From contig JAXHVD010000017.1 of assembly GCA_034189385.1 (NCBI GenBank), positions 36,084-100,083 of the forward strand: 64,000 bases of DNA. Direction: 5' to 3'. The position numbers were made by a program, and so were the translations under genes. Origin of the DNA: Thermodesulfobacteriota bacterium (lineage in GTDB: Bacteria > Desulfobacterota > Desulfobacteria > Desulfobacterales > C00003060). The notes under the pieces are model-generated. The model worked only from the letters and a program-made list of their open reading frames with translations, had not been told where the DNA came from and searched no databases. Each line of letters starts with the position of its first letter. Position 1 is the stretch's first letter. This document shows positions 25,473 through 63,883 of the stretch, in pieces.

Positions 25473-25816
25473 CAATAAAATACTGTAAAAGTTCTGCAAT
25501 TATCTTGACATTTATTTAATTTTTAGCTAGTTAAAGGTCAGTTAAAATTATGATAGCTTTAATTATATATAATTAATATACATATATTGATAATAACAAC
25601 GGTTTTCGCTTCCACAAACAGTCTTTCGTAAGGGGTTGACTGGGCCGGCTCTGTGTAATCCAGGGAGCGGAGCTGTGTCTGGTCTGAGATCTTAAGGCCT
25701 CAGACCTTTACATGGGATTCAAACAACGATACCATGGCAATGAACGTTCGAAAGAGTTATGCAAAGCTCTCGCTGTCTTGATGTGCAGGGGAGGAGGCCG
25801 GCCCCGGAAGGTTGAA

Positions 25817-26203: not shown

Positions 26204-26636
26204 AAGAGGTAGATCCCATCCGCATCAGAGATCTGCTGGGGAACATGAACGATGCGCTACGCCGCTTGCGGGAACTGGGTGATGTGCCTGAAGAAGCATT
26301 TCTTGCCGACTATCGCAATACCGAGAGTGCGAAGTACCTGCTCATTGTTGCCATGGAAAGCGCCATCGATTCGTGCAATCATATAGTGGCGCGCAAAGGG
26401 GGAGGGCGCCGCAGGATTATGCCGACTGCTTTACGATTCTTGCCGAGCTTAAGGTTGTTGACTCGCAACTGGCTTCACGCCTCAGGCAGATGGCACGGTT
26501 TCGAAATCTCATTGTCCATCTTTACTGGCAGGTAGACAACCGGCGGGTTTACTCCTTGATTCGTGAGGATCTTGTCGACTTGGATCTCTTTCGCGAACAG
26601 GTCCTGGATTGGGGACAATGGGGCAGGACACACTAG
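26200..26636 (+). pseudogene. HepT/DUF86 HEPN ribonuclease toxin, frameshifted
   Basis: N-half is in ORF 26200..26535 and C-half, with the RNLIVH (Rx4H) motif, is in 26373..26636. One extra G in the G5 run at 26398-26402 would restore KGGRAPQDY. Confidence 0.85.
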
Positions 26637-47227: not shown

Positions 47228-48493
47228 ATGTACGATTCTAATCAAAAGAAAGAACGCATTTTCCTCTCTCCTCCCCACATGGGAGGTGTGGAGTTTGAGT
47301 TCATACGCGAGGCCTTTGAGAGTAACTACATCGCTCCAGTGGGACCTCAGGTAGATGCCTTTGAAGAGGAGTTTTCCGAAAAGGTGGGCATTCCCCATGC
47401 CGTGGCCGTATCAAGCGGCACAGCAGCCATGCACCTAGCCATGCAGCTCTTGGGGGTAGGCCCAGGTGACGAGGTAATGGCATCTACGCTTACCTTTATA
47501 GGCAGTGTGACCCCCATTGTGTTCCAAGGGGCAACGCCAGTCTTTATTGATGCGGATCGCACTTCGTGGAACATGGACCCCAATTTCCTTGCTGAAGAGC
47601 TGGAAAAATGTGACAAGGCGGGACATTTGCCGAAGGCAGTGGTCCCCACAGACCTTTACGGACAGTGCGCTGATATGGAGAGGATTCTGAAAATCTGTGA
47701 GCCCTATGGCATTCCCGCGGTGGTGGATGCGGCAGAGGCAATCGGCGCAAAGCGCCGTGTCGAGGCTCAAGGCTCAAGGCTCAGGGCTCAAGGTTCAGAG
47801 TTTAATGTTGATGAAAAATGGGTGCATGCTGGGGCTGGCGCCAAGGCGGCGGTTTTTTCGTTTAATGGAAACAAGATTATTACAACCTCAGGTGGTGGGA
47901 TGCTGGCGTCACACGACAAGGAATTCATAGAACGGGCAAGGTTTCTCTCCCAGCAGGCCCGCGACGCTGCCCCCCATTATGAGCATTCCACTATTGGATA
48001 TAACTACCGAATGAGCAATGTCTTGGCTGCCATAGGCCGTGGCCAGCTCCTCGTGTTGGATGACAGGGTGGAAGCAAAGCGTAAGATATTTGACATTTAC
48101 AAGGAGGCCCTGAAAGATCTTGCCGGCATTGAATTCATGCCCGAGGCGCCATACGGGAGATCGAACCGCTGGCTCACGGTGATCTTGATCACCCCTGAGG
48201 CCTTTGGTGCAGACCGGGAAACGGTGCGCTTGGCCTTGGAGGCTGAGAATATCGAGTCAAGGCCGGTGTGGAAGCCGATGCATTGCCAACCTGTTTTTCA
48301 GGTTGAAGGTCAAAGCCGAAAGCTCAAAGGTGAAAGCAAGTGCCACAGCGCCTACAGGGCGAGGGTGGTGGGGGGAGCGGTGGCGGAGGATCTCTTTGAT
48401 CGGGGGCTTTGCTTGCCCTCTGGAACGGCCATGACGAGCAGTGATCTGGAACGGGTCATTGGGGTGATAAGGAAATGCTGTAAGTTTAGCTAG
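47228..48493 (+). CDS. DegT-family aminotransferase (PglE/EpsN-like) with two repeat-derived insertions
   Basis: 'IFLSPPHMG', 'SSGTAAMH', 'SFNGNKIITTSGGG', 'RPVWKPMH', 'LCLPSG'. Confidence 0.93.
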   Translation: MYDSNQKKERIFLSPPHMGGVEFEFIREAFESNYIAPVGPQVDAFEEEFSEKVGIPHAVAVSSGTAAMHLAMQLLGVGPGDEVMASTLTFIGSVTPIVFQGATPVFIDADRTSWNMDPNFLAEELEKCDKAGHLPKAVVPTDLYGQCADMERILKICEPYGIPAVVDAAEAIGAKRRVEAQGSRLRAQGSEFNVDEKWVHAGAGAKAAVFSFNGNKIITTSGGGMLASHDKEFIERARFLSQQARDAAPHYEHSTIGYNYRMSNVLAAIGRGQLLVLDDRVEAKRKIFDIYKEALKDLAGIEFMPEAPYGRSNRWLTVILITPEAFGADRETVRLALEAENIESRPVWKPMHCQPVFQVEGQSRKLKGESKCHSAYRARVVGGAVAEDLFDRGLCLPSGTAMTSSDLERVIGVIRKCCKFS

Positions 48494-48612
48494 CTAGTTA
48501 GCTGGTCCGCCCAGCAAACCGGCGGATAAACCCGCCTAGTAATCCGGCGGATAAATGAGCTGATGAGCTGGTGAGCATTCTAGCTATTGAGCTGATGAGC
48601 TGATAAGCTATT
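48487..48612 (+). repeat. AGCT array 3 with two nested 25-bp CCGCC-N9-GGCGGATAAA units
   Basis: Read directly; spans the gap between the convergent stop codons. Confidence 0.92.
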
Positions 48613-50513
48613 TATAGGACGCATTCTGTTTCCTGGGGCCTGTATTCGGGCACCAGTTCGTTTAGCTTCTCTTTGATGCCAGGGGCATCCTGGCTTCCTG
48701 CCAGTCGATAAAGATCATCCACGCCTTGGTATAGCCACCTACAAAATCCCTCCCTGTTACCATGGCCATTCCAACCCCCATTTGGCTTCAGGACCAGTAT
48801 CTTCTCATGGGGCGTGGGTGCGATCCCTTCATCTTCGGTGATGAGCTCTTCGTTGAGCTTTTCGCCCGGCCGGAGGCCGGTAAAGACGATTTCCACATCC
48901 CGATCGGGGTCCTTACCGGAAAGGCGGATGAGGTCCCGGGCCATGTCCACAATCTTGACGGGTGTTCCCATCTCCAAGACGAAGATTTCCCCTCCGTTGC
49001 CCAGGGCGCCTGCCTGAAGAATAAGCTGGCATGATTCCGGAACGGTCATGAAGTATCGCCTGACCTCCGGGTGCGTGACCGTCACCGGGCCGCCGCGAGC
49101 AATCTGTTGCCGGAAATGGGGGATAACCGATCCCGAAGATCCCATGACATTGCCAAAACGCACGGCCCGCATGCGGGTGCCGTTTGCCCGGAAAGACTGT
49201 AAGACAAGCTCACACACCCTCTTGCTGGCCCCCATGACATTGGTGGGCCGGACGGCCTTGTCTGTGGAGACCAGCACAAAGTCCTCTACCTTGTGTCGGA
49301 TGCTATGTTCCATGATCATGCGGCTGGCCCGTATATTGTTATTGACTGCCTGCCAGGGGTTTCGCTCCAGCATGGGCACATGCTTGTAGGCGGCCGCATG
49401 AAAGACGACCTGGGGTTTGTACCGACGGAACGTACTCTCCAAAACGGGCTCGTTTTGTATGCCTCCCAGGACGGCTGAACAGGGTAGGTCCCTGCAGCTC
49501 TGTTCCAGTTCCATGTGTATGTCGTAGAGATTCGGCTCAGAGGCATCGAGAAGAACCAGCCTTTCAGGGTGGAAGCGGGCGATCTGGCGGCATAGTTCAG
49601 AGCCAATAGACCCTCCTGCCCCGCTCACCAGGACCCGTCTCCCCTTGAGATACCCCTGGATCTGTTCGAAATGCAGATGGACGGGGGGCCGTCCTAGGAG
49701 ATCCCGGTAGTCCACGTCCCTTAGGGCCTTGATGCTTACGTGACCGTTAATGAGTTCTCCCATGCCCGGCAGGGTCTTATAGGGCAAACCGGATGCCTCA
49801 CAGGCCTCGACAATCCTGCGCATCTGCTTGCCCGTGGCCGATGGAACGGCAATGAGGACCTCGTCTGCCCGATACTTTTCCGCCACCTGCGGGAGGGACT
49901 CCACATTGCCCAAGACAGGCAGGTGATGGATAGCTCGCCCCATCTTTTTCGGGTCGTCGTCAATAAAACCCACCACGCGGTAGGAAAGCCGCGGATTGTC
50001 CCTTAATTCCCTGAGGGTCTTTTCGCCTGCGTCTCCAGCGCCGATGATCAGCAGCCGTCTGGCATGGTCATGATGGGATCTAAGGAAAGGGATGCGGCTG
50101 CTAGTGTCTTTGCGATGAAAGTAGAGCCTGATGCCGAGGCGTAATCCACCCACAAGAAAGAAGGTGAGCAGAATATCCATGACAAACACACTTCTCGGAA
50201 AGCCGTGAAAGCGAACGGTGATGAGGAGCGCAAGCACAATCATGGCAGAGCTGGCAAGACATGCCTTTGCCAGGTTTTCCAGATCTTGAACGCTGGTATA
50301 ACGCCACATCCCGCTGTACATGCCGAAAACCATAAAGCAGGCCAGTTTGAGAGGCACGATCCACGCGACTGTGTGCATCCAACTGGCGAAGAAGTTGGCA
50401 GGGATACTCCCGTCAAAGCGAAGATAGTAGGCAGCGTAGTAAGAAGTGGCGAGAAGGAGGGCGTCCACCAAAAGCATGATCCAGAAATTGCGGTTTTTCA
50501 GGATGTGAGGCAT
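48612..50513 (-). CDS. Membrane-bound NDP-sugar 4,6-dehydratase (PglF/CapD/WbpM family)
   Basis: N-terminal TMs, 'IIGAGDAG', 'GAGGSIGSE', 'HAAAYKHVP', 'STDKAV', 'MGASK', 'RFGNV', 'GLRPGEKL'. Confidence 0.95.
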   Translation of the reverse strand: MPHILKNRNFWIMLLVDALLLATSYYAAYYLRFDGSIPANFFASWMHTVAWIVPLKLACFMVFGMYSGMWRYTSVQDLENLAKACLASSAMIVLALLITVRFHGFPRSVFVMDILLTFFLVGGLRLGIRLYFHRKDTSSRIPFLRSHHDHARRLLIIGAGDAGEKTLRELRDNPRLSYRVVGFIDDDPKKMGRAIHHLPVLGNVESLPQVAEKYRADEVLIAVPSATGKQMRRIVEACEASGLPYKTLPGMGELINGHVSIKALRDVDYRDLLGRPPVHLHFEQIQGYLKGRRVLVSGAGGSIGSELCRQIARFHPERLVLLDASEPNLYDIHMELEQSCRDLPCSAVLGGIQNEPVLESTFRRYKPQVVFHAAAYKHVPMLERNPWQAVNNNIRASRMIMEHSIRHKVEDFVLVSTDKAVRPTNVMGASKRVCELVLQSFRANGTRMRAVRFGNVMGSSGSVIPHFRQQIARGGPVTVTHPEVRRYFMTVPESCQLILQAGALGNGGEIFVLEMGTPVKIVDMARDLIRLSGKDPDRDVEIVFTGLRPGEKLNEELITEDEGIAPTPHEKILVLKPNGGWNGHGNREGFCRWLYQGVDDLYRLAGSQDAPGIKEKLNELVPEYRPQETECVL

Positions 50514-50518
50514 TGTTT

Positions 50519-50627
50519 TAGCTTATAAGCTGTTCCGTCCAGCAAACCGGCGGACAAGCCCGCCTAGTAAGCCGGCGGACAAGTAAGCTAGTAAGCTGTT
50601 GAGCCAGTAAGCTGCTGGACTGATAAG
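50519..50627 (+). repeat. AGCT array 4 with two 25-bp units
   Basis: Read directly; abuts the dehydratase start codon. Confidence 0.88.
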
Positions 50628-50887
50628 GGCCTATTCGCCTACCAGCCTGGGTGCTTTCGGGCCCTGGAAAATGGCACAATACACCGCGCTTTGCTAGTTA
50701 AAGATAATTATATATAATTATATTAATGTCAAGATAATTTTGACTTGGCGTGGCTGTACGCAGGAGAGGGGCGCATATTATGATGGTAATAACAATGGGT
50801 TGTACGTATTGATCCGTCTGGACAGGATGTGCTCAAAGGCATATCTTGGAGCAAGAACAAGCGTGGAGGGGCCGCAAGGGACCTGTT

Positions 50888-51013
50888 TAGCTGGTGAGCT
50901 ATTTAGCTGGTAAGCTATTAAGCTGATGAGCTGGTCCGCCAAGCAGACCGGCGGATAAACCCGCCCAGTAAGCCGGCGGATAAACCCGCCTAGTAAGCCG
51001 GCGGATAAATGAG
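50888..51013 (+). repeat. AGCT array 5 with three 25-bp units
   Basis: Read directly. Confidence 0.92.
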
Positions 51014-51174
51014 AAGTAAGGGCCTTGTTTTTCCAGTTGACCCGTAACGGTTTTAGTGTTATGTTAATGCTGTTACGGAAAAAGCATAATTTGACGGACT
51101 AAACAACCTTGTTTTGAGCCGGGGTGCGGGACCATTTTTTAGGACGGCGAAATCGGACAGTCGGGAACGTCTAC

Positions 51175-52308
51175 ATGAAGAATCCTTTCATCTATGGCGG
51201 CCTTGTTTTCGGTAGTCATTTTGCCGATAGGCAACGCGAGCTTTCTGAGCTAACGGCCGAAATGAGTAATGGAGGTAAGGTCTTCTTGATTTCGCCCAGA
51301 CGCATGGGCAAAACATGCCTGCTGAAAAACCTGCAACGGAAGATGGAAATGGAGGGCTTCTTCACCGCCTATGTGGATCTTTATCGTGCTCCCACGCTAA
51401 GGCATTTCACCGAGCTATATGCAAAAGCGGTTGTAGAAGCCGTGGAAGGCAAGATTGAGAAGATGGTGAAGGCCATCCCCAGGCTCCTTCCGGGCTTTCG
51501 ACCGAAACTTGAGCCAAGTCCTGACGGGACAATCTCGTTCTCGGTGGAGTACGTTGCCAGGGAGAAGGAGGTCTTTCAAGTATTGACCGAAGTCCTTGAG
51601 TATCCTGAAAAAGCATCGGTCAAGAAGAGCAAACCGTTTGTCGTTGTTATTGACGAATTTTCAGATATCACTAAATACAACGGTGAGGATGTTGAAAAAG
51701 CTATTAGAGCAGTGGTTCAAACCCACCAGCAGGTGGGCTATATTTTTTCTGGTTCCAAAAGGTCGGTGATACATGACATGGTAAAGGACAGGACACGGGC
51801 CTTCTATCGCATGGGCTCAGCCATGGAATTGAGCCCCATCCCGCGTGACTTGTTTCGTCCCTTTATGGAAAGCTGGTTTGGCAAAGGGGGCTATGACCTT
51901 GGAGAGGGCGTGGTTGACCTTGTTTTTGAAAAAGGCCGCGATGTGCCTTACAACATTCAGCGTATTGCTCACAATATTTGGGAAGATGCAAGGGAGTCTA
52001 AAAAGATAGAAGAAGACCTGGTCGAAAAAGCGGTAGGGACAATCATCCGCCAAGAGTCCATGCACTACGAAGCCTTCTGGGACGGCACACCTCAAAAGCA
52101 ACGGGAGGTCCTCATCGCCTTGGCTAGTGATGAGCCTGCCAGCCTTTTCTCACAGGAGTTTCTGCAAAAATGGCGGCTTGGTGTTTCATCGCTCCAGTCC
52201 TCTATTAAGGCCCTGGAAAACAAGGGGGTGTTGGAAAGGGGGAAACAAGGAAAATGCAGGTTCGATGATGAGTTCTTTCGTCTCTGGATTGTGCGAATGC
52301 CTGATTAG
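51175..52308 (+). CDS. AAA/archaeal-type ATPase with C-terminal wHTH-like region
   Basis: 'MKNPFIYG', 'FADR..E', Walker A 'SPRRMGKT', Walker B 'VVIDEF', 'FSGS'. Confidence 0.88.
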   Translation: MKNPFIYGGLVFGSHFADRQRELSELTAEMSNGGKVFLISPRRMGKTCLLKNLQRKMEMEGFFTAYVDLYRAPTLRHFTELYAKAVVEAVEGKIEKMVKAIPRLLPGFRPKLEPSPDGTISFSVEYVAREKEVFQVLTEVLEYPEKASVKKSKPFVVVIDEFSDITKYNGEDVEKAIRAVVQTHQQVGYIFSGSKRSVIHDMVKDRTRAFYRMGSAMELSPIPRDLFRPFMESWFGKGGYDLGEGVVDLVFEKGRDVPYNIQRIAHNIWEDARESKKIEEDLVEKAVGTIIRQESMHYEAFWDGTPQKQREVLIALASDEPASLFSQEFLQKWRLGVSSLQSSIKALENKGVLERGKQGKCRFDDEFFRLWIVRMPD

Positions 52309-52559
52309 TGATTGAGGTGGTCCGCCAAGCAGACCGGCGGATAAATAAGCTGATGAGCTGGTTAGCTATTAAGCTGATGAGCTAGTTAGCTATTAAGCTG
52401 ATGAGCTAGTTAGCTATTAAGCTGGTAAGCTGATGAGCTGGTAAGCGATTGAGGTGGTCCGCCAAGCAGACCGGTGGATAAACCCGCCTAGTAAGCCGGC
52501 GGATAAACCCGCCTAGTAAGCCGGCGGATAAACCCGCCTAGCAAACCGGCGGATAAATG
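52305..52559 (+). repeat. AGCT array 6 with five 25-bp units
   Basis: Read directly. Confidence 0.93.
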
Positions 52560-52561
52560 TC

Positions 52562-52912
52562 CTAAAGGTCGACAAAATCAATGGTGTATGGCTCCATCCC
52601 TGATGGGTGTTTCGTGGCATAATCCTTGAGGGCCTCTGCAACAAGAGAAAATCTATCCCCTGGGATGGTATGGGGAACAATGAGTACCCCGCAGTGCGGG
52701 CGGAGTTCATTAAAGAACTGAACGGTCAGACGGATAAAGTCATCTCGATTTCGGGTGACAAGGGTCCTGTTCTCTGAGACTGCATATTCCAATTGCTCTC
52801 TATCCAGTGCCTGGGTCATACTCACCTCGTGGGCACTCATTACATTGACTGCATATTTTCTCAAGATTTCTGCAACTTTTGGACTTATGTCTTCATCAAG
52901 GTAGTACTTCAC
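52562..52912 (-). CDS. DUF5615 (PIN-like) putative toxin
   Basis: 'KYYLDEDIS', 'LVTRNRDDF', 'HCGVLIV'. GTG start at 52912. Confidence 0.85.
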
Positions 52913-53333
52913 GAGACTTCGTTCCGGCAAGAAAGGGATAGGTTCTGTGAGTGCTTTCCTTTGTCCACCCTTTATTCTGATCTATGAGAGCATCAATTTC
53001 TTTTGGGTACGCCCGATAGTAGCCTAATGCGGCTCTGAGCTGCAAATCGTTGAGCCAGTGGTACGCAGAGCGCAGGCGGTCAAAATCCTCATTTACACTT
53101 TTGTGCGTGGCGATCACCTCCCACACCTCCAGGCCGGTGCCGGCAATTCGCGCCCTGCGGCCCGTTACCCCTTCGGCGAAGACGATGCCAGGACAGCGAT
53201 GCATTCTAATTGCCTCTTGAAGCAGCTCTTTTGTAATGGTGGAGAAGTCCTTTCCTGATCGTTCTGCAATGCCCTGAATTTCGGCAACTATTTCCTTTGG
53301 AATCCTCATGCTCTTTTGAATACTCGCCATCAT
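52896..53333 (-). CDS. DUF433 antitoxin with RHH-like N-terminus
   Basis: 'QKSMRIP', '[15 protein letters not shown]', '[14 protein letters not shown]'. Confidence 0.85.
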
Positions 53334-53400
53334 GACCTCCACGGGGACAATGTGTATGACACCACACTACGATGCATTGCACCGCATGTCAAGCCGATTT

Positions 53401-53557
53401 GGCTATTTAGCCATTTAGCTGTTAAGTTAGTAAGCTATTTAGCTGTTGAGCTGGTCCGCCTAGTAAGCCGGCGGACAAGCCCGCCAAGCAGACCGGCGGA
53501 TAAACCCGCCCAGTGAGCCGGCGGATAAACCCGCCCAGTAAGCCGGCGGATAAATGA
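53401..53557 (+). repeat. AGCT array 7 with four 25-bp units
   Basis: Read directly. Confidence 0.92.
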
Positions 53558-53618
53558 GGCTTTACGGTGAAACGGAAACCCGGTTGAGGCTTTTGCAACC
53601 GTCTCGCATTAATGCAAT

Positions 53619-54029
53619 TCAGGGGATGATGGTGAACCCGGCTGTCACAAAATGCCGGTCAAAGCAGAAAGCTTGTTCAATACCGGTTTGGCGCATCACG
53701 GCAAAACTGACTGCATCGGTGTAGCTGAAAACCTGATCTCGGTATTTTCGCAGGATATCTTCGGCAGTTCCTTCCAACAGGCTGTCCGAATAGATTTTGA
53801 TGACCCGGGGACTGGCTGCAATACTTTCCAGAAAGCTGATAGCGGGTTCGTGGCCCATGGCTCGGCGTATGAGGATATAGGTTTCGGCAACAACGAGATT
53901 GGTTGTTGTCAAGTGGTATTCACTGAGGAGATTCGGATAGACCTTGACAGCCTCTTTGTGATGTTGATCAGATCTGTCGGCCAGAGCAAACCACGCACCC
54001 GTGTCCACAAATATATCGCCTTTTTTCAC
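53619..54029 (-). CDS. vapC: VapC PIN-domain toxin
   Basis: 'IFVDTGAW', 'VVAET', 'SYTDAVSFAVM', 'FDRHF'. Confidence 0.9.
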   Translation of the reverse strand: MKKGDIFVDTGAWFALADRSDQHHKEAVKVYPNLLSEYHLTTTNLVVAETYILIRRAMGHEPAISFLESIAASPRVIKIYSDSLLEGTAEDILRKYRDQVFSYTDAVSFAVMRQTGIEQAFCFDRHFVTAGFTIIP

Positions 54030-54038
54030 CCTGTTCTC

Positions 54039-54281
54039 CTATTCCTCCGAGATCAAGTAGTCATCATGCCTTTGTCCAATGTCCTTTTTCCCTGAGGCCC
54101 CAAGGTTCATAATGTCCAGTGCGGGATCTTTTTCAGGTGGAATGCCAGCGATAAACTCGGAGACGCATGAGCGGATGAGGGCGGCCTTGGACTTTCCACT
54201 GTTCTTGGAAATAAGACCAATAATCTTGTCCTGTTGGGGATCCAAATAGATCTGAATGGGGATCTTCTTTTGCTTTTTCAT
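54039..54281 (-). CDS. vapB: RHH/CopG-type antitoxin
   Basis: 'PIQIYLD', 'SKAALIR', 'HDDYL'. Directly upstream of vapC. Confidence 0.82.
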   Translation of the reverse strand: MKKQKKIPIQIYLDPQQDKIIGLISKNSGKSKAALIRSCVSEFIAGIPPEKDPALDIMNLGASGKKDIGQRHDDYLISEE

Positions 54282-54363
54282 GGCATCATTCTCCGCATGT
54301 CTAATTAATGCTATATACATAACATGCTATATAAAATAGTGATTGTCAATTACAAAATGTGAT

Positions 54364-54510
54364 GGCTGGTCCGCCCAGTAAGCCGGCGGATAAATGAGCT
54401 GGTGAGCTAGTTAGCTATTAAGCTGGCCCGCCTAGTAAGCCGGCGGATAAACCCGCCTAGCAGACCGGCGGATAAATAAGCTGATGAGCTGGTAAGCGAT
54501 TGAGCTGGTC
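54364..54510 (+). repeat. AGCT array 8 with three 25-bp units
   Basis: Read directly. Confidence 0.92.
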
Positions 54511-55342
54511 CGGCTTTGCGGTGAGACTGATGCCTGTTTGAAGGGGGCGCATGGAAGGAGTCAAAAAGTTGGCACCTGGCTCATTCTTCGCCACATCAAT
54601 ATATTAGATCAAGCTTAGGCCCGGCTTGTATCAAAAGTTGGCACTAAGGCATTTTACATACATATCAGTCAGTTGAGGTCCATTTATGGGGAGCACGTCA
54701 AAAACTTCTGCTGATTGACCGGCCTGGACGGCCAAGAAGGGGCGGCTGAGGAGGTCGTCTCCGATAGGTCCTTATCTGAGCGTGTGACGTTCTGCACACA
54801 TTTATTTGGTTAGAAACTGAACGGTTAGGTCCCCTCCATAAGAAGAGGGCGGGGCACCCCGGTGCCAAAGGGGGCTCGGAAAGGCGAGAGTGGCACCTTT
54901 TTCGCATAGGCTATGGCGTTTAAAACTTTGCATAACTGCTTTGAGCGGCCATTGCAAGCTTTTTGGGGAACCCATTCCGGCGCAGCGAACGGCCCACGTT
55001 AGTGGGCAAATCCTAAACTGTTTGAGGCCGTTAGGCAGAGTATGAGCGCAAAGCTTCACTGCGCTCCGCTCCGTGTTAGGATTTAGTAAGCAAGTCGGCA
55101 TATGGGTCAAAAAGCTTGTAGGAGGAAGCGAAAATAGGTTGTGCAAAGGTTTCCCCTTATTCCTGTTAGAGGCTAATCGGCAAGCGGGCGATTAGCCTTT
55201 TTTTACACAGCCGGGTGAATGCCCCGAAGAACTCATAGGAACGATTGAGAAGAGGTTCTGCAAAGGTCCCGTAACATCGTTAACCGAGAGCGGCAGATGT
55301 GGCAAGAGGGCAGACTCACTTTCTCTCAGTTGTAGAAACAAA

Positions 55343-55774
55343 TATTCACCGCAAAGGCGCGAAGAGCGCAGAGTGTATTTTTCTTTATGTTTTCCGCTGA
55401 GACGCCGGAAAACATAAAAAAGCTATCGCCTACGGCGAACAGAAACGGATCGAGATCAGGCATTTTAGCTGTATTTACATATGGTTCCGGTGAAAGATGG
55501 CTGACGTTCATTAGCTCCTTGTTGTGAAGATAAATAATCACCGCAAAGGCGCGAAGAGCGCAGAGTCTATTTTACTTTATGTTTTCCGCTGAGACGCCGG
55601 AAAACATAAAAAAGCTATCGCCTACGGCAAGAAGAAGGGCATATTCACCGCAGAGACGCAGAGTTCGCAGAGCCAGTCCTACTTTATGTTTTCCACCGGT
55701 AACAGGCTATTAAGCTAGTGAGCTAATGAGCTAATCAGCTTTGCGCCCTTTGCGTCTCGAGCGTAGCGGGCGGT
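55343..55774. repeat. Composite repeat region: duplicated ~100-bp hairpin unit plus AGCT array 9 (55705-55740)
   Basis: TCACCGCAAAGGCGCGAAGAGCGCAGAG...TATGTTTTCCG-CTGAGACGC-CGGAAAACATA at 55346 and 55538, with a third variant at 55645. Confidence 0.88.
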
Positions 55775-55936
55775 GGCCTCATGTCTAAATGTCAATGATC
55801 TCATCAGTAGCTGGGGCCTGCCTCGTTGGCCGAAGGCCTTCACTGGGGCGCCCTCAGCATCTACGCGGTAAATACCCAAGCAGGCGAAGACAAGCGTTTT
55901 CCATTGTCGCCTGAACGAATATATTGGAGAGTGTTA

Positions 55937-58606
55937 ATGCGAAAACATGCCAGTGTTTTGGCAAAAATAATGTTGCAGGCCCTTCTCATGGTGCTTGTTC
56001 TATCGGGCACACACGCCTTTTCCGGTGAGCTGAGCCTGAGATGGAACCCTAACCTGGAATCGGACATTGCCGGTTACAAACTCCACTACGGCACTGCGAG
56101 CTGGGATTACGAATTTGCCGTGGATGTGGGAAACGAGACAAGCTACACGCTTTCAGGCCTCCAAAGCGGAATGGTCTATTATTGTGCGGCAAGCGCCTAT
56201 GATACGCAGGGAAACGAAAGTGACCTGTCTGAAGAAGTGGTTCACGTGGTGGCTTCTGATGAGGCAACGGTCTATGAAGATGCCGAAGATGGGAAGGTTG
56301 ACGGGTGGTATGTGTACGATAATAGCCCTGTGGGTATGGAGATCACCAATGTGTTTGATGAAGAACGGCAGAGTCGGGTGATTCAGTTGTCAGGTTCCGG
56401 CCAGACCAATGGTGCCTCTTTGAGAAATCGTGATTTTACCCTGTGGCAGAATGCAGGACAGTTTGTGATACAGTGGAGCATGAAGTATGCTGAATCCTTC
56501 ACCATCTATATTGACGTTGAGACCACTGCGGGTCATCGATACATGTATTACACTCCGGTTGACCACGACGGACTGGGGCAGGGTGAGTATGTCCATCACG
56601 GACTGGGAACCAATGTGATCGACGGACGATGGCGCACCTTTGTTAGAGAGCTTCAGGCAGATCTTCGAGATGCCCAGCCTGGGGTAAGTATCATAGAAGT
56701 GAACGGTTTTTTGATCCGAGGCAGCGGACGTGTGGATGATATCAAACTGCTTGATGCCATGCCTTCCTCAACGGTCTATGAAGATGCTGAGGATGGGACG
56801 GTTGACGGGTGGTATGTGTACGATAATACCCCTAAGGGCATGGAGATAACCAATGTGTTTGACGAGGAACGGCAGAGCCGCGTGATCGAGTTCTCAGGCG
56901 CTGGCCAAGACAACTGTGGTAGTTTAAGAAATGCTGATCTTAGCAAGTGGCGCAATGACCATCAGTTTGTGATCCAGTGGAGCCTCAGCTATACTGAATA
57001 TTTTACCGTGTACCTTGACGTTGAGACCACTGCGGGTCATCGATACGTCTACTACACTGCCCATGACCACGACGGACTGGGGCAGGGTGAGTATGTCCAT
57101 CACGGACTGGGGACCAATGTGATTGACGGACGATGGCGCACCTTTGTTAGGGACCTTCGGGCAGATCTTCGAGACGCCCAGCCTGGGGTAAGTATCATAG
57201 AAGTGAACGGTTTTTTGATCCGAGGCAGCGGACGTGTGGATGATATCAAACTGCTTGATGCCATGCCTTCCTCAACGGTCTATGAAGATGCCGAGGACGG
57301 GACGGTTGACGGGTGGTATGTGTACGATAATACCCCTGAGGGCATGGAGATAACCAATGTGTTTGACGAGGAACGGCAGAGTCGGGTGATTCAGTTGACA
57401 GGAGCGGGGCGGAGTAACGGTGGTTGTTTGAGAAATCCCAATTTCAGCGTGTGGCAGAATACTGGCCAGTTTGTGATACAATGGAGCATGAAGTATGCTG
57501 AATCCTTCACCATCTATATTGACGTTGAGACCACTGCAGGTCATCGATACATGTATTACACTCCGGTTGACTCCGACGGATTGGGAGGCGGTGGATATGT
57601 CCATCATGGACTGGGAAGCCATGTGACTGACGGACAATGGCGCACCTTTGTAAGGGACCTTGAGGCAGATCTTGCCGATGCCCAGCCTGAGGTGACCATT
57701 CTGGAAGTAAACGGCTTTCTGATCCGAGGCAGTGGGCGGTTGGATGACATCATGCTTCATGATCAGATGCCATTGGATGGGGATGAAGACGGCATTGATG
57801 ATGCGTTAGAAACAGCGGGCTACGGCACGGATCCAACCCTGATGGATACAGATGGAGATGGTATAAACGATGGCAATGAACTAGCCTTTTGGCAGGGGGT
57901 CTGGGGTACAGACTATGATGCTGATGGTGTGGTGAATCTTTTGGATGGAGATTCAGACGGGGACGGGTATCTGGATGGTGAAGAGATCGCAGCTGGCTCT
58001 GATCCGGCAGATCCTTATTCTGTGCCGCCAGGGGCAAGCTGGACAGACTATCGGGTGATGTTTACCATGGGCTCTAATGATAATGATGCTGTGGGGCTGA
58101 TGTTTCGGTTTCAGGATGCGGACAACTACTACCGTTTTTCCTGGGACAACCAGCGTGATTACCGCCGTCTGGTGAAGTGTGAAAATGGGGTCTTTACCCT
58201 GCTTGCAGAGGATAGTGTAGGGTACGTCACAGGAGAGACCTACGAGATAGAAGTTGTTGCAGAGGGGACCACTCTGGAAGTCTTTGTCGATGATGAATTG
58301 GTCTTCTCGGTGACGGACCAGACTTTTACCGGCGGGACCATTGGGCTTTACTCCTGGGGGAACCGGGGAAGTCTCTTTGACAATGTGCTGGTGGAGGACC
58401 TTTCCACGGATGTGGTCGTGCTGTGGGAGGATTTTGGGGATGGTGACTACAGTGGCTGGAGTGTTGTAGATGAGGGTACTATTAGTGGGCCGTCAGCATG
58501 GTCGGCCGAAAGTGGGACTCTGGTGCAAAGCGCCAATATCTATTCCGGGCCGACTGACCGCGCCGATTTGAGCAAGTTGGGCACATTTGTCGTCTACGAC
58601 GGCTAG
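55937..58606 (+). CDS. Secreted multidomain protein: FN3, three 168-aa CBM-like repeats, Ca-binding DxDxDG repeats, lectin/DUF1080-like domain
   Basis: Signal peptide, FN3 'LRWNPN...GYKLHYG...AYD..GNES', 3x 'TVYEDAEDG', 'DTDGDGINDG.E', 'WTDYR...DNYYRF'. ORF track starts at 55826. Confidence 0.8.
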   Translation: MRKHASVLAKIMLQALLMVLVLSGTHAFSGELSLRWNPNLESDIAGYKLHYGTASWDYEFAVDVGNETSYTLSGLQSGMVYYCAASAYDTQGNESDLSEEVVHVVASDEATVYEDAEDGKVDGWYVYDNSPVGMEITNVFDEERQSRVIQLSGSGQTNGASLRNRDFTLWQNAGQFVIQWSMKYAESFTIYIDVETTAGHRYMYYTPVDHDGLGQGEYVHHGLGTNVIDGRWRTFVRELQADLRDAQPGVSIIEVNGFLIRGSGRVDDIKLLDAMPSSTVYEDAEDGTVDGWYVYDNTPKGMEITNVFDEERQSRVIEFSGAGQDNCGSLRNADLSKWRNDHQFVIQWSLSYTEYFTVYLDVETTAGHRYVYYTAHDHDGLGQGEYVHHGLGTNVIDGRWRTFVRDLRADLRDAQPGVSIIEVNGFLIRGSGRVDDIKLLDAMPSSTVYEDAEDGTVDGWYVYDNTPEGMEITNVFDEERQSRVIQLTGAGRSNGGCLRNPNFSVWQNTGQFVIQWSMKYAESFTIYIDVETTAGHRYMYYTPVDSDGLGGGGYVHHGLGSHVTDGQWRTFVRDLEADLADAQPEVTILEVNGFLIRGSGRLDDIMLHDQMPLDGDEDGIDDALETAGYGTDPTLMDTDGDGINDGNELAFWQGVWGTDYDADGVVNLLDGDSDGDGYLDGEEIAAGSDPADPYSVPPGASWTDYRVMFTMGSNDNDAVGLMFRFQDADNYYRFSWDNQRDYRRLVKCENGVFTLLAEDSVGYVTGETYEIEVVAEGTTLEVFVDDELVFSVTDQTFTGGTIGLYSWGNRGSLFDNVLVEDLSTDVVVLWEDFGDGDYSGWSVVDEGTISGPSAWSAESGTLVQSANIYSGPTDRADLSKLGTFVVYDG

Positions 58607-58683
58607 CTATTAAGCTGTTAAGCTATTAAGCTGTTGAGCTGATGAGCATTCTAGCTGATAAGCTGTTAAGCTGGTGAGTAGCT
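58601..58683 (+). repeat. AGCT array 10, spanning from the upstream stop to the four-helix-bundle ATG
   Basis: Read directly. Confidence 0.93.
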
Positions 58684-59052
58684 ATGAATGGGGAGCGGCT
58701 GTTTAGTTTTCAGGATTTGAAGGTGTGGCAGAAGTCCGTCTCCTTTGCCGAAGAAGTCATTCGAACTATTGATGAACTTGACACGCCGCGTAAACACTAT
58801 CGTCTGGTAGAGCAGCTTGAAGCAGCCGCCACGAGCGTGTCCATGAACATTGCCGAAGGGAAAGGCCGCCAATCCACGAAAGAGTTCATCCAGTTTCTTT
58901 ACATAGCCAGAGGCTCTTTATTTGAAGTCGTAACCCTTCTGATCATTCTGGAAAGAGTCGGGTGGATGGCGCAGAAGAAGGTCGGAATGCTTCAAGGGCT
59001 GGCCGAAGAGATTGCCAAGATGATTAATGCCCTGGTGAAGTCGATGAGATAA
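58684..59052 (+). CDS. Four-helix-bundle protein (23S rRNA IVP / bAvd-like family)
   Basis: 'FQDLKVWQKS', 'QL..AA.SVSMNIAEG.GR', 'FLYIARGSLFE'. Confidence 0.93.
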   Translation: MNGERLFSFQDLKVWQKSVSFAEEVIRTIDELDTPRKHYRLVEQLEAAATSVSMNIAEGKGRQSTKEFIQFLYIARGSLFEVVTLLIILERVGWMAQKKVGMLQGLAEEIAKMINALVKSMR

Positions 59053-59053
59053 A

Positions 59054-59175
59054 TTAGCTGGTAAGCTGTTGAGCTGGTAAGCTAATGAGCTAGTGAGCTG
59101 ATCAGCTAATGAGCTGGCCCGCCCAGCCAGCCGGCGGACAAGCCCGCCAAGCATACCGGCGGATAAATGAGCTGT
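59054..59175 (+). repeat. AGCT array 11 with two 25-bp units
   Basis: Read directly. Confidence 0.92.
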
Positions 59176-59308
59176 CCAGCAGGGTTTTGGCATCCTTCCA
59201 AAGGCTTGAGCACTTCCTGATATTTTGATATAAACCCACCGTCTATTTGGTTTCACCGAAAAGACGCCGAGCACGGAAAGCTGACCACCCAACTGCGGCA
59301 AAGGGGTC

Positions 59309-59432
59309 TGTTTCTGTTCGCCACAGGCGATAGCTTTCTTATGTTTTCCGGCGTCTCAGCGGAAAACATAAAGTAGGACTGGCTCTGCGAACTCTGCGGC
59401 TCTGCGGTGAATATGCCCTTCTTCTTGCCGTA
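59309..59432 (-). repeat. Inverted copy of the 55343-55694 hairpin unit
   Basis: 59361-59432 is the reverse complement of 55623-55694 with one mismatch. 59309-59372 matches 55384-55446 in reverse. Confidence 0.9.
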
Positions 59433-59464
59433 TGAGTATTTAGAACTCCAGGGAATTTTTGCTA

Positions 59465-60931
59465 ATGGGTGTGGCAACTGTGGATGAGATTATCCGGAAG
59501 GGGCTGCTGGTTGTTTTAGGTTTTTCGGTGGTCTTTTTTGGAGCGGTCCATACATGGGCGTACACCTGTGTGCAGCTTTTCCTCGTTTGCCTGGCCCTGT
59601 TTTTTGTTCTTGTTCGTGTGCGGGCCTGGCGCCGGGAGGGCAGGGGTGAGATCTCCTGGATTGTCACACCTGTGAATCTGGCTGCCCTTGTTTTCCTGGT
59701 TGTGGTGATTCTTCAAATCATCCCTTTGCCTGGAAGCCTTGTGGGGGTGCTTAGCCCGAACACAGCGGCTGTGACCAAGATGTCAGAAGGCGTTGTCACC
59801 GGGCCTGCCTCCAGTTATCATTTCAGCCTCTACCGCTACGCCACCGTCCAAAGCCTGATGATGGTGCTGGCCATCCTCTATTTCTACTTTCTGTTGCTCT
59901 ATTCCATCAAAGGGCGATCGCAATTAAAATCCTCTGTCAAGTGGGTCCTCTATCTTGGATTGGCTGTTTGCATCTACGGGCTCTTCGAGAAACTGAGCGG
60001 CCACGGCCACATCCTGTGGTGGCGGCACCAAACCCAACATGGATTCAGGGTCTTTGGAACATTTATTAATCCGAACCACTTTGCCTTTTTTCTGAACCTC
60101 ATCCTCTGCCTGCTCTTCGGGCATCTATACGCATTGATGGGACGAAGAGAGAGAAACAGATACGACAGGGCAAGGGGCCTGTTTCGTGCTTTTATGGAAA
60201 ATGAGCCGGGTACCCATGAGATCGTCTTTCTTTCTTTCTGCTTTGGCGTGATGGTGGTCACGGTCATCATGACAGGTTCAAGGGCGGCTGTTTTTTCCCT
60301 GGCCCTATCCATGTGTGTCATTCTGATACTCCTTTTTGTGAAGACGAGAAAGAGAAGCCTCTTTTTTCTCATAGGGGCCCTCTTTCTCATTGTCCTGGTC
60401 TGCGGGCAGCGGATCGGCATTGAAAAAACGATCAATCGCTTTGAAGCGCTTTCCAAGGAGGGGATCTTCCAACAAGAGCGGATGGTGCACAACCGGGCGG
60501 TATTTCCTATCATCAAAGAATACCCTCTCTTGGGGACAGGGTTGGGCACCTTTGAACATGTCTATCCCCGCTACCAACCGGCCCAGGCCCGGGGGTATCG
60601 TAGAGAACTGCACAACGACTGGTTGCAGTTGTTGGTGGAAACGGGGGGCGTGGGTTTTCTAACGGTCCTCGTGGGCTTCATCGCCCTGATGAAGCGCTTT
60701 TTGGGGTTGTGGTGGAAAAGGAGAGATCCCTTTGCCGTAGGTGTGGGTATGGGATGTATCGGCGGCCTTGTGGCCGCTGCTGTCCACAGCCTCTTTGACT
60801 TTAGCCTGCACATACCGGCCAATGCCTTGACTCTGGCCACTGTGGTGGCCATGGGCTTTTTGGCGCTCCACAGCAAGAAGCATAGCCATCGGACGCCCTT
60901 TACTTACCCGGTGAAGAAATTAGTTAGCTAG
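59465..60931 (+). CDS. Second O-antigen ligase (Wzy_C) family protein, without TPR tail
   Basis: 'GTFINPNHFA', 'TGSRA', 'GTGLGTF', 'LHNDW', 'HSLFDFSLHIPAN'. The stop falls inside AGCT array 12. Confidence 0.9.
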   Translation: MGVATVDEIIRKGLLVVLGFSVVFFGAVHTWAYTCVQLFLVCLALFFVLVRVRAWRREGRGEISWIVTPVNLAALVFLVVVILQIIPLPGSLVGVLSPNTAAVTKMSEGVVTGPASSYHFSLYRYATVQSLMMVLAILYFYFLLLYSIKGRSQLKSSVKWVLYLGLAVCIYGLFEKLSGHGHILWWRHQTQHGFRVFGTFINPNHFAFFLNLILCLLFGHLYALMGRRERNRYDRARGLFRAFMENEPGTHEIVFLSFCFGVMVVTVIMTGSRAAVFSLALSMCVILILLFVKTRKRSLFFLIGALFLIVLVCGQRIGIEKTINRFEALSKEGIFQQERMVHNRAVFPIIKEYPLLGTGLGTFEHVYPRYQPAQARGYRRELHNDWLQLLVETGGVGFLTVLVGFIALMKRFLGLWWKRRDPFAVGVGMGCIGGLVAAAVHSLFDFSLHIPANALTLATVVAMGFLALHSKKHSHRTPFTYPVKKLVS

Positions 60932-61133
60932 TTAGCTAGTTAGCTGGTGAGCTGTTAAGCTAGTTAGCTGGTAAGCTGGTGAGCTGGTAAGCTGGTAAGC
61001 TGGTCCGCCCAGCAAACCGGCGGATAAATGAGCTGGTGAGCTGTTAAGCTGATAAGTTGATAGCTGTTGAGCTCTTTAGCTGATAAGCTATTGAGCTATT
61101 GAGCTATTGAGCTAATGAGCTGGTGAGCTGTTG
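60921..61133 (+). repeat. AGCT array 12 with one 25-bp unit, followed by TGAACGG-type heptamers (61132-61178)
   Basis: Read directly. Confidence 0.93.
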
Positions 61134-61189
61134 AACGGAAAACGATAAGCGGACAACAGTGAACGGACAACCAACAACAGGAGTCTAAC

Positions 61190-61843
61190 ATGAAAAATCC
61201 CATTGGCCGCTATTGGAGGGTCCGCCTAACGGATGTGAAGAAGCAGTTGGAGGCCAACAACTTTGAGGCCTTTGTGGCAGAAAACGCCGCCAAGGCAAGG
61301 CAAATTGTCCTGCAAGAGATCCTTCCCAAGATCAGGGCAAAGAGTGTCTCCTGGGGCGGGTCGTTGACCTTTGTCTCCTCCGGGCTCTATGATGTGCTAA
61401 AGGACGATAGGAAAATGAAAGTCCTGGACGTCTTCGACAAGGAGCGGCCCCGTAAAGAAACGGCCGAACTGCGGAGACAGGCCCTTTTGGTGGATCTCTT
61501 TGTTACCGGCACCAATGCCGTCACAGAGACCGGCAAACTCGTCAACCTGGATATGTACGGAAACCGCGTGGCAGCCATCACCTTTGGTCCCAAATATGTA
61601 ATCATCCTCGTGGGCCGGAATAAGATCGTGGGCGATATTGAGGAGGCCATGGTGCGGATCAAAGACTATGCAGCCCCTGTCAATGCCATGCGCCTGGACA
61701 AAAAGACGCCATGTGTTAAGACGTCTTACTGCGAAGACTGCCGGAGCCCGGACCGCATCTGCAACACCTGGACCATTACAGAGAAGTCCTTTCCCAAGGG
61801 GCGGATAAAGGTGGTGTTGATCAATAAGGACATGGGGTTTTGA
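61190..61843 (+). CDS. LUD-domain (lactate-utilisation/YkgG-like) protein
   Basis: 'SWGGS.T', 'TGTNAVT..G.LVNLD..GNRVAA..FGP', 'GRNKIV', 'PCVKTSYC.DC.SP.RICN'. Confidence 0.88.
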   Translation: MKNPIGRYWRVRLTDVKKQLEANNFEAFVAENAAKARQIVLQEILPKIRAKSVSWGGSLTFVSSGLYDVLKDDRKMKVLDVFDKERPRKETAELRRQALLVDLFVTGTNAVTETGKLVNLDMYGNRVAAITFGPKYVIILVGRNKIVGDIEEAMVRIKDYAAPVNAMRLDKKTPCVKTSYCEDCRSPDRICNTWTITEKSFPKGRIKVVLINKDMGF

Positions 61844-61889
61844 AAAAAGAGAGGGTTCAAGGGGTCAAGGGCTCGAGGGGTTGAGTGAA

Positions 61890-62363
61890 GTGCTGAAGAA
61901 TTATAAAGAGCTGAAAGTCTGGCAAAGGTCCTATCAGCTATGTTTGCAGACTTACGGAATAACAAAAGAATTTCCTGAAGACGAGAGATACGGCCTGTCA
62001 TCGCAAATGAGAAGGGCCGCAGTTTCTGTTCCCAGCAACATAGCGGAAGGATATGGAAGAAAAACGACACAGGACTATATTCGGTTTCTGCACATAGCCT
62101 ATGGTTCGAACTGTGAATTAGAGACACAGATATTGCTTGGCGGCGACCTGGGGTATATCGAAGCTCCTAAACTGGAGATACTCCGGCAGGGAATAGGAGA
62201 GGTCGAGAGGATGCTTAAAGCACTCATAAGGTCGCTGGAGAGAAAGCACTCGACCCCTTGGGCCCCTTGCATCTTTTTAAGGCGAAAGCCGCAATCCTGG
62301 AACCCTTTTCTTCAACTGAGTTGGAGAAAAATCTGCATTAAGAACAAAGGAATTTCGCAATGA
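61890..62363 (+). CDS. Second four-helix-bundle protein; C-terminus reads through the flanking repeat
   Basis: 'LKNYKELKVWQ', 'FP..E.YGL.SQMRRAAVSVPSNIAEGYGR', 'IAYGSNCELETQ'. Confidence 0.92.
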   Translation: MLKNYKELKVWQRSYQLCLQTYGITKEFPEDERYGLSSQMRRAAVSVPSNIAEGYGRKTTQDYIRFLHIAYGSNCELETQILLGGDLGYIEAPKLEILRQGIGEVERMLKALIRSLERKHSTPWAPCIFLRRKPQSWNPFLQLSWRKICIKNKGISQ

Positions 62364-62857
62364 GAAGAACTTGTACAAAGGTCTTGAGGATTTGTGGTGT
62401 GTGGATGGGTGTCTGCCTGTTGTTGCTGGCCTGCTCTCATTCTGACTCGTCCTTGCCCTTTGATCCGAACATCAAGGACATGGAGATGGTTCAGTGGATC
62501 ACAGGAGAGGAGGCCCAAAAGGCCATCGACAGACTCCATGGAATGTCTATCGACGTGGTCAGGGGCTTCATCGCCCATTACAAGGGCGCTTACGGCAAGG
62601 CCACCATATGGGTATCGGAAGCGACCACGGAAGACCTGGCCAGCGAACAGATTGACGTGATGATCGACAAGATGAAAAAGAGCAAACGCTCGCCCTTCAG
62701 TAACTATCGCCAATGGAATAAAGAGGGCTTGAACGTCATTGCATTTGATGGTATGGGCCAGGTTCATTATGTGTTTAAAGATAAGACCTGGGTCTATTGG
62801 GTGAGCGCAGATGGAAGGGGCATAGATACGATTCTAGAGCATATTCAAGATGGCTAG
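62360..62857 (+). CDS. Putative lipoprotein of unknown function
   Basis: Lipobox LLAC; ATGA overlap with the upstream gene. Confidence 0.7.
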
Positions 62858-63815
62858 TGGGAGGTTTGAGGAGAAATTTATGAGAATGCCTAAAGTGCTG
62901 GTTACAGGAGGGGCGGGTTTTCTGGGCAGTCATCTGTGTGACAGATTGCTGGCTGAAGGGAAAGAGGTGCTGTGCCTGGACAATTTCTTCACAGGATCGA
63001 AAAACAACATTTTCCATTTAATGGATGATCGGCGTTTTGAACTGGTCCGACACGACCTGGTGCAGCCCATCTTTCTGGAGGTGGATCAGATTTTCAACCT
63101 GGCTTGTCCTGCGTCACCGGTCCATTATCAGTACAACCCTGTAAAGACGGTCAAGACGAACGTCATGGGAACGATTAACATGTTGGGGCTGGCCAAACGG
63201 GTCGACGCCCGGATCTTGCAGGCCTCCACATCTGAGGTCTATGGCAACCCGAAGGAACATCCTCAGAAGGAAAGCTATTGGGGACATGTGAACCCCATTG
63301 GCCTGCGCAGTTGCTATGACGAAGGAAAAAGGGTGGCCGAGACATTGATGATGGACTACCATCGCCAGAACAGAGTAGACATTAGAATTGTCCGCATCTT
63401 TAATACCTACGGTCCAAGAATGGCCGTTTCCGACGGCAGGGTGGTGAGCAATTTCATCGTCCAGGCCCTGAAGAATGAACCGCTTACGGTATACGGAGAC
63501 GGAAGTCACACCCGCGCCTTTTGCTATGTCTCCGATATGATCGACGGGTGCATGAAGATGATGGCGTGCGATGATTTTGTGGGGCCTGTAAATCTGGGAA
63601 ATCCGAATGAGTTTTCCATTCGAGAGCTCGCTGAGTTGGTGCTCGAGATCACCGGGTCCAAGTCGCCCATCGTAACCAAGCCCTTGCCAGAGGATGATCC
63701 TGTTCAGCGACGTCCCCATATCGCACTGGCCAAGGAAAAACTGGACTGGGAACCCCGGGTGAGTCTGAGGGAGGGGTTGGAAAAGACCATCGACTATTTT
63801 AGTCAGATGATATGA
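62850..63815 (+). CDS. uxs: UDP-glucuronate decarboxylase (UDP-xylose synthase), SDR family
   Basis: '[11 protein letters not shown]', '[11 protein letters not shown]', 'STSEVYG', 'YDEGKR', 'RIFNTYGP'. Start may be 62880 or 62886. Confidence 0.93.
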
Positions 63816-63883
63816 GTGAGTTGGCGATTTAGCTGATGAGGTGATGAGCTGATGAGCTGGTCCGCCCAGTAAGCCGGCGGATA
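63813..63883 (+). repeat. AGCT array 13 ending in an interrupted 25-bp unit
   Basis: AGCTGATG units, then AGCTGGT-CCGCCCAGTAAGCCGGCGGA-TA followed by unrelated sequence. Confidence 0.88.

Follow-up and report, generated by a model that had tools for sequence, protein, structure and literature searches.

The locus and its hairpin units

We analysed a 64,000-nt stretch of DNA (positions 36,084 to 100,083 of contig JAXHVD010000017.1, assembly GCA_034189385.1, forward strand; here denoted the window) from a Thermodesulfobacteriota bacterium. The window forms the end of contig C9, and the genome (4.13 Mb, 52% GC) is 90% complete. The region is a polysaccharide export and synthesis cluster in which, from 48.5 kb onward, genes are separated by tandem arrays of the 8-mer AGCT-RDTD (here denoted AGCT arrays). 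The genes between the arrays include a dehydratase, an ATPase, a DUF433/DUF5615 pair, a PIN gene with a small partner, a secreted repeat protein and two four-helix-bundle genes, among others. Nested in the arrays is a 25-nt hairpin (here denoted the unit), which is inserted without target duplication at one phase of the array. The features of the locus, in order of position, are as follows.

48494..48609, + strand: unit-bearing host array of the AGCT 8-mer (AGCT-RDTD)
48506..48555, + strand: run of two units, whose array separates the aminotransferase gene from the dehydratase gene
50534..50583, + strand: run of two units, the first with one stem change, both with the tail ACAAG
50935..51009, + strand: run of three units 5' of the ATPase gene, on the right edge of its array
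51124..52308, + strand: ATPase_2/AAA_14 gene, unit-bearing arrays on both sides
52309..52457, + strand: host AGCT 8-mer array between two runs
52321..52345, + strand: one unit, directly 3' of the ATPase gene; site empty in a contig of public run X3
52458..52557, + strand: run of four units that directly adjoins the end of the DUF5615 gene; one stem change in the first unit
52562..53342, - strand: DUF433 and DUF5615 gene pair, unit-bearing arrays on both sides
53455..53554, + strand: run of four units between the DUF433/DUF5615 pair and the PIN gene
53619..54320, - strand: PIN-domain gene and small upstream open reading frame (no Pfam match), unit-bearing arrays on both sides
54370..54394, + strand: one unit
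54427..54476, + strand: run of two units; 54509-54512 may be the 4-base stump of another unit
55705..55740, + strand: unit-free AGCT array within a larger dispersed repeat
58605..58683, + strand: unit-free AGCT array upstream of the four-helix-bundle gene
58684..59052, + strand: four-helix-bundle gene (TIGR02436/PF05635) between two arrays, lacking or elsewhere in relatives
59118..59167, + strand: run of two units, 3' of the four-helix-bundle gene; metagenome contig L159 has one unit and lacks that gene
60920..61134, + strand: host AGCT 8-mer array, the longest in the window
61004..61028, + strand: one unit, in the middle of the longest array
63861..63883, + strand: one unit, interrupted at its TA by an insertion sequence, with the tail and the array continuing at the start of contig C18
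63884..64000, + strand: left end of this multicopy insertion sequence, which has inverted ends and TA at all 8 ends found

The motif CCGCC-N9-GGCGG matches the window 22 times, versus 0.09 matches expected (100 shuffles). Twenty-one matches fall at 48507-63880, and one, at 6087 inside valS, has no tail. With one-mismatch copies at 50535 and 52459 added and the tail-less valS match excluded, there are 23 units in 11 runs of 2,2,3,1,4,4,1,2,2,1,1 copies, confirming an earlier note on this DNA that had counted about 23 copies in runs of 1-4. Every copy is intergenic and on the + strand, and units within a run stand head-to-tail. The consensus of the unit is YCCGCC-HAGYVDDCC-GGCGG-AYAAR (25 nt). 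Its stem is nearly invariant (2 substitutions in 230 positions) and its loop variable (10 sequences), as previously observed. Two linked loop types, C..A in 10/11 copies and T..G in 11/12, reassort with the first loop base. DNA folding of the isolated unit gave a 6-7 bp hairpin on either strand; the fold of the 25-nt unit has a 5-7 bp stem at -5.7 to -6.6 kcal/mol, with z of -2.4 to -3.0. An Rfam search gave no match for the unit, and tRNA was the only match.

All 11 runs enter the 8-mer array at the identical point, and the natural borders of the unit fall between AGCTGG and TRAGCT, one base earlier than those first drawn. The six bases 5' of the runs are AGCTGG in seven, AGGTGG in two, AGCTGT in one and GGCTGG in one, in keeping with the proposed entry from AG(C/G)TGG. 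The four bases 3' of the run are TGAG or TAAG, that is, the exit to TRAG described before, in 9/11 runs as assembled and in 10/11 when the last copy is read across the insertion sequence. When the run is removed, the 8-nt phase is regained in 9/11 cases and the remaining two runs stand at array ends; the claim of a fixed position within the arrays is thus borne out. Runs begin with T in nine cases and with C in two, and inner copies all begin with C. The two C-starting runs, which follow AGCTGG, still end before TRAG and likewise leave the array intact, which shows that insertion duplicates no base.

A search of the genome found all 23 exact units within arrays, and at <=1 mismatch there were no further copies elsewhere in the genome or in 40 relatives. 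Four arrays of the window carry no unit (at about 12746, 25412, 55705 and 58605), which fits the absence from arrays 1, 2, 9 and 10 noted earlier, and 11 of the 20 AGCT arrays listed for this genome are unit-free. The flanks of the runs at 52321 and 52458 are duplicated.

An assembly artefact was ruled out, as contigs of the likely source run cover several runs of units without differences and independent metagenomes hold the unit. The continuation of the split unit onto contig C18 was confirmed by an independent contig. Ends of the insertion sequence that splits it also lie at C18:1-118 and on C5, C12, C25, C39 and C46; the element breaks the assembly and links C9 to C18. It is a putative IS630-like element. 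The possibility that the unit is the target of this insertion sequence was rejected, since 1/23 units is struck and the other ends of the element are at unrelated TA sites.

Variation between strains and movement of cassettes

Metagenomes were scanned with a pattern that required array context, yielding 11 matches, of which three are real (L159, L163 and L166) and eight were judged by eye to be chance; because the pattern demanded array context, the scan cannot reveal copies outside arrays. L166, with flanking genes 98% identical, has two different units in a 95-nt array at a site where the window has one unit in 174 nt. L159 (main matches 87-95%) has one unit versus two in the window, and the four-helix-bundle gene is lacking. 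L163 is an unrelated sugar-transferase exopolysaccharide locus with two units in the phase and polarity of the window. An array irregularity is common to L163 and the window, which suggests that the unit moves together with its array.

Contigs of public runs were matched at 85% likeness, and joints in them need caution. In run X3 the unit site at 52321 is empty, and the four-helix-bundle cassette is joined to the dehydratase gene (59111 to 48606) with the 8-mer phase kept and no unit; the joint is seen in one 606-nt contig with 330 + 276 nt on its two sides. Cassettes therefore change place without the unit. The four-helix-bundle genes at 58684-59052 and 61881-62363 are both lacking at the orthologous sites of L159 and L166, and L166 carries another hairpin repeat in place of the second. 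Units per site range from 0 to 4 across strains. Clean borders, fixed phase and polarity and a strain-variable copy number are thus direct observations on the unit.

These rearrangements bear on the proposal that the unit is the actual recombination site, meaning that it works as a point of cutting or crossover, renders the arrays recombinogenic and thereby causes small genes of the polysaccharide locus to be gained, lost and reordered without an integrase. Arrays at the locus do turn over faster than their flanks, three runs have unique DNA directly after the tail with no in-phase 8-mer, two more are one 8-mer from unique DNA on the left, and 17/23 copies are within 4 kb that hold the ATPase gene and two toxin-antitoxin-type pairs; the DUF433/DUF5615 pair is presumably of this type, judged by its families. 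In Neisseria, NTS repeats modulate the integration of incoming DNA (PMC11893778). However, the cassette-dehydratase joint and the ATPase end of X3 are both without the unit, and the four-helix-bundle gene that is missing from L159 has a unit-free array upstream. Neither the tailed unit nor an AGCT array was found at loci of homologs of the bracketed genes (0/13 for DUF433, 0/22 for the ATPase), 44 arrays in 12 other genomes are unit-free, and no attC cores are present. The proposal is not supported by these data, and we consider a role as recombination site improbable.

The unit might instead act in RNA, as a pause, antitermination or processing signal of a long polysaccharide operon. In line with this, every copy is on the sense strand of most genes of the locus, in L163 too, and 7/23 copies read GGCGG-N5-TG, which matches the spacing in ops-type pause motifs. 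The ops/JUMPstart antitermination signal has the motif GGCGGTAGnnTG and goes with a NusG paralog. The ops motif has 0 matches in the window, though, and the 90% complete genome holds one NusG-family (PF02357) gene. No U-tract follows the stem on either strand (AYAAR follows on +, array sequence on -), and the unit is absent from 27 terminator-like matches of a scan that allows loops <=8 nt only. With the lack of an Rfam match, the 0 to 4 copies per site and the most densely bracketed genes pointing the opposite way, we regard an RNA signal as very unlikely.

The unit belongs to a wider family of mini-hairpins

The genome contains 55 shorter hairpins, TCCGCC-N2/N3-GGCGGA (29 + 26), versus 0.34 expected per spacing, and none at spacings 0, 1, 4 and 5. 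They occupy several host repeats. For 18/55, the identical 14-nt flanks enclose an unrelated perfect hairpin at a sister site; sister sites that are empty were not found, which indicates that the short forms take the place of existing tips instead of inserting. At least 20 short hairpins occur in 14/151 genomes of the order. Other genomes (G142, G064, G034, G135, G057, G139, G495 and G458) contain tailed forms with identical ends, whose loops measure 3, 8, 10 or 14 nt. A site immediately 5' of start codons of four-helix-bundle-type genes is filled in G135 (five copies, 8-nt loop) but empty in this genome. Judged by the stem and tail that it shares with these hairpins, the unit is a long-loop member of a wider YCCGCC-loop-GGCGG(A) family. 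The description of the unit as a REP-like second element (REP, repetitive extragenic palindrome), separate from the array, is supported by its clean borders, its empty and filled alleles and its relatives inside other repeats.

A flank periodicity of at least 0.5 was found for 2/45 tailed relatives, versus 8/10 runs here and 2% of random stretches. The unit was absent from AGCT arrays elsewhere (0/44 arrays in 20 regions of 12 other genomes), six of which have another GC hairpin at their edge. Since the relatives are mostly outside tandem arrays and these 44 arrays are unit-free, the array preference belongs to this lineage and not to the family. The view that the element targets the arrays is thus supported in part: the exact unit was found in arrays in 23/23 cases, contrary to the refuting case named in the note (copies mostly outside arrays with random junctions), but most of the wider family is in non-tandem repeats, and 11/20 arrays here and 44/44 elsewhere are unit-free.

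Searching more widely, we found that a loose pattern matches 177/401 genomes of the phylum; only multi-copy cases were followed, because controls were of similar size in most genomes. The exact pattern without array context gave 23 single matches in genome contigs, none in an AGCT array: six are in one Trebonia repeat, most others were judged by eye to be chance coding matches, and L032 is intergenic. The Trebonia repeat is >150 nt long and contains the exact unit-pattern match (L022, L024, L027, L031, L035 and L037). Viral contigs gave 62 pattern matches, none with an array by eye, and the plasmid search gave 8-mer array matches only.

Several dispersed repeat families genome-wide have exchangeable apical hairpins with exact borders, and at least six unrelated tips recur. 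One of these tips also caps AGCT arrays in relatives (L040, L056, L139, L141, L145 and L155).

This distribution is relevant to an enzyme-free origin, namely a single capture of a hairpin fragment during template switching or repair, with slippage and gene conversion as the sole means of later amplification. The single locus and single orientation, the duplicated flanks of the runs at 52321 and 52458 and the two reassorting loop lineages are as expected under such an origin. Many unrelated host repeats and genomes, however, carry this stem and tail with exact borders, a pattern that random capture would not produce, and an origin of this kind appears to us improbable.

Candidate enzymes

The earlier note had suggested a search for a RAYT (REP-associated tyrosine transposase) or other HUH transposase gene flanked by the unit; none was found among the 7 Y1 matches in this genome, and the stem is present at 0/19 Y1 loci of five hairpin-rich genomes. 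The corresponding explanation is that the unit is a REP-type element moved by a Y1/HUH transposase (RAYT or IS200-type TnpA) through peel-and-paste transfer, which makes no target duplication. Clean insertion, the 25-nt size and a short tag at the hairpin foot do fit HUH chemistry (PMC6006769), and REPs within other palindromes are on record (PMC3733652). Moreover, an IS200-like gene on contig C22 ends in a CCGCC-N9-GGCGGA hairpin at its downstream end, a hairpin also present at C9:35534. Yet that hairpin has a self-paired loop of another type and no AYAAR tail, the GTAG tag is found at 0/23 units, and the units are head-to-tail only, an arrangement described as rare for REPs in PMC3733652. 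We therefore doubt that a Y1 enzyme moves the unit, and rate this no higher than a recombination site.

Small GIY-YIG genes are associated with the short hairpins. In G142 and G064, four and five short hairpins, respectively, flank a GIY-YIG gene of 86-97 residues, where they replace 10-nt pieces of partial tRNA-Asn copies. The layout is matched in this genome at C12:129420-129830 (L177), where the gene is truncated. That short relatives of the unit flank small GIY-YIG genes is thus a plain observation. All five closest homologs (at least 70%) of the tRNA-Asn-linked gene, among 30 homolog loci, have a short hairpin within 500 nt; more distant homologs mostly have other hairpins or none, with the loose pattern in 6/25. 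A GIY-YIG homolog is present in 12/14 genomes with at least 20 short hairpins versus 26/137 others (hand count; Fisher p 9e-7, which is overstated). Among 20 loci of a second GIY-YIG subfamily we found related but different hairpins and no tailed unit; one of the 20 has a long-loop stem form without the tail, by eye. The candidate nuclease is a GIY-YIG protein of UPF0213 type, and its best solved relatives are the UPF0213 proteins 1zg2 and 1ywl.

At small GIY-YIG genes behind tRNA-Asn (L177, L288, L294, L334, L336 and L337), TCCGCC-N3-GGCGGA replaces 10 nt of the anticodon or T arm in partial tRNA copies. GIY-YIG subfamilies at tRNA-Asp and tRNA-Val have TCCCGC..GCGGGA or TCCCGTC..GACGGGA hairpins instead. 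A further GIY-YIG gene of this genome, at C45:137522-137870 (L178), lies between two inverted matches to the SRM pattern in an Ssn-type layout, and its frame seems shifted near the start.

A proposed nuclease-dependent passenger as the best explanation

Ssn nucleases are single-domain GIY-YIG proteins that bind, as single-stranded DNA, the hairpin repeats around their own gene. SsnA cuts single-stranded DNA a few bases upstream of the hairpin, on the tagged side; it needs the stem sequence and orientation and tolerates loop changes (PMC11893778 for both statements). Taken together with the genes described above, this makes a small Ssn-like GIY-YIG nuclease the best candidate enzyme. We give about an even chance to the reading that the unit is a selfish passenger of the mini-hairpin family, placed once or a few times by a process dependent on a small GIY-YIG single-strand nuclease and multiplied by slippage and array recombination. 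Here we infer a role for the nuclease and a paste step. On single-stranded DNA, the nuclease would bind the stem and cleave a few bases beyond the unpaired tail, in the way that SsnA acts at NTS repeats, and the cleavage would define the border on the tail side. The hairpin would next be pasted or copied by host repair into a different repeat, and array-to-array exchange would then spread it in register. Such in-register exchange would account for the single orientation, the head-to-tail runs and the confinement to 15 kb. No host function of the unit is needed.

Several points weigh against the nuclease-dependent passenger. A nuclease cannot rejoin DNA, so cleavage alone does not explain the insertion step. 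Six of 11 runs are at an array edge, with <=1 in-phase 8-mer to one side, and 17/23 copies crowd around the three central cassettes; purely passive spreading would not lead one to expect this. The five close nuclease homologs sit at tRNA-Asn or a fragment of it and so probably go back to a single inherited event; the hairpin may have done no more than invade these pseudo-tRNAs, as it has invaded other repeats. In the association with 12/14 genomes the threshold is post hoc, the query genome and this genome are included, and kin are not independent. Nuclease genes were seen next to the short untailed form only, never next to the tailed unit with its 9-nt loop. The three small GIY-YIG genes found in this genome all appear to be broken, leaving no intact candidate in the assembly, and the candidate nuclease is 25% identical to the SRM-flanked Ssn-type gene of the genome.

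A broader form of this explanation, which we put forward as a tentative and rather unlikely one, is that hairpins of 14-30 bases are minimal mobile DNA that inserts, with exact borders, into repeat tips or replaces them, driven not by a transposase but by tRNA-linked UPF0213-like GIY-YIG single-strand nucleases with subfamily-specific hairpins, and that here they are also cut sites that speed integrase-free turnover of arrays and genes. The locus offers a test case: the 25-nt substrate is defined and exactly bordered, both filled and empty alleles exist, the hairpins come in two sister lengths, and the candidate nuclease has <100 residues. If the nuclease cuts at the tail border, it would constitute a second family of site-specific single-strand nucleases and explain hairpin swaps in repeats of uncultured bacteria; if there is no cut at that border, the locus is a clean but ordinary nesting of one repeat in another.

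Other features of the window and of the arrays

The aminotransferase gene contains in-frame heptamer tandem repeats (47763-47797 and 48306-48337), and a contig of run X3 skips 48030-48254. An MntA/HepT-like toxin-antitoxin pair (25712-26535) directly follows the unit-free array at 25412. The secreted FN3 protein (55826-58606) has three long internal repeats, and its homolog in L159 is a short form without them. Other high-copy dispersed repeats of the window are at 54960-55110, 55340-55770 and 59280-59420. At 54989-55107 relatives bear a short TCCGCC..GGCGGA tip, and the repeat at 59381-59407 has a different hairpin element inside it in L159.

Plasmid pHS1 of Sodalis praecaptivus (L421:1500-1670) carries, between two biosynthetic genes, about 20 AGCTATTR 8-mers that are nearly perfect and represent a purer version of the AGCT array type. 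The reversed AGCT array pattern gives multi-copy matches in G008, G042, G335, G395 and others, so mirror-image 8-mer arrays exist in some relatives.

Comparison with known systems

The integron attC site is defined by RYYYAAC and GTTRRRY cores around a hairpin. Like the unit, attC sites are hairpin-forming repeats between small gene cassettes that include toxin-antitoxin-type pairs, and an integron integrase above the TIGR02249 cut-off is encoded at C42:3191-4123, unlinked to the unit locus in the assembly. In contrast, no RYYYAAC/GTTRRRY core pair was found around the 23 units, and the unit is far shorter, occurs in several copies per boundary and is not carried by cassette homologs. A second comparison is with the repeat arms of four-helix-bundle (23S rRNA intervening sequence protein) genes: AGCT arrays flank a PF05635 gene here, and the tailed relatives in G135 lie in such an arm. 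The hairpin is nonetheless a separate passenger, and most arrays are without it.

GTAG REPs and bacterial interspersed mosaic elements with their RAYTs are likewise extragenic imperfect palindromes of 20-40 bp with a tag, have strain-variable copy numbers and tandem amplification, and include some families nested in other palindromes (PMC3733652 and PMC6006769). The unit differs in lacking the GTAG tag (GTGG is within 6 nt of the stem foot in 2/23 units), in forming no inverted dimers, in flanking no Y1 gene and in being confined in its exact form to C9, the short relatives alone being dispersed.

The unit also resembles in organization the NTS repeats and SRM pattern (dRS3, CGTC-type; Chenal et al. 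2025, PMC11893778). The two share a conserved stem, a tolerant loop and a one-sided unpaired tag that gives polarity, small single-domain GIY-YIG genes flanked by relatives of the stem (here the short untailed form), and clustering near surface-structure genes, which for NTS are variable surface genes of Neisseria. There are also differences: 0/23 units fit the SRM pattern, which finds 46 other sites in the genome, two of them flanking the GIY-YIG gene on C45; the nuclease linked here is UPF0213-like and tRNA-linked, tRNA not being mentioned in the text of that paper; and the units here are head-to-tail within a tandem array, the paper showing cleavage and not insertion. The unit may therefore work like an NTS repeat, but it is not one.

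The literature covered, mostly open-access text whose figures and supplements may list related consensus repeats, holds no account of the unit, of the TCCGCC/GGCGGA family or of AGCT arrays. Nested REP-like elements (PMC3733652) and hairpin-flanked GIY-YIG nucleases (PMC11893778) are already known; to them the present case adds exact borders with empty and filled alleles, a continuum of hairpins from 14 to 30 nt and a named candidate enzyme.

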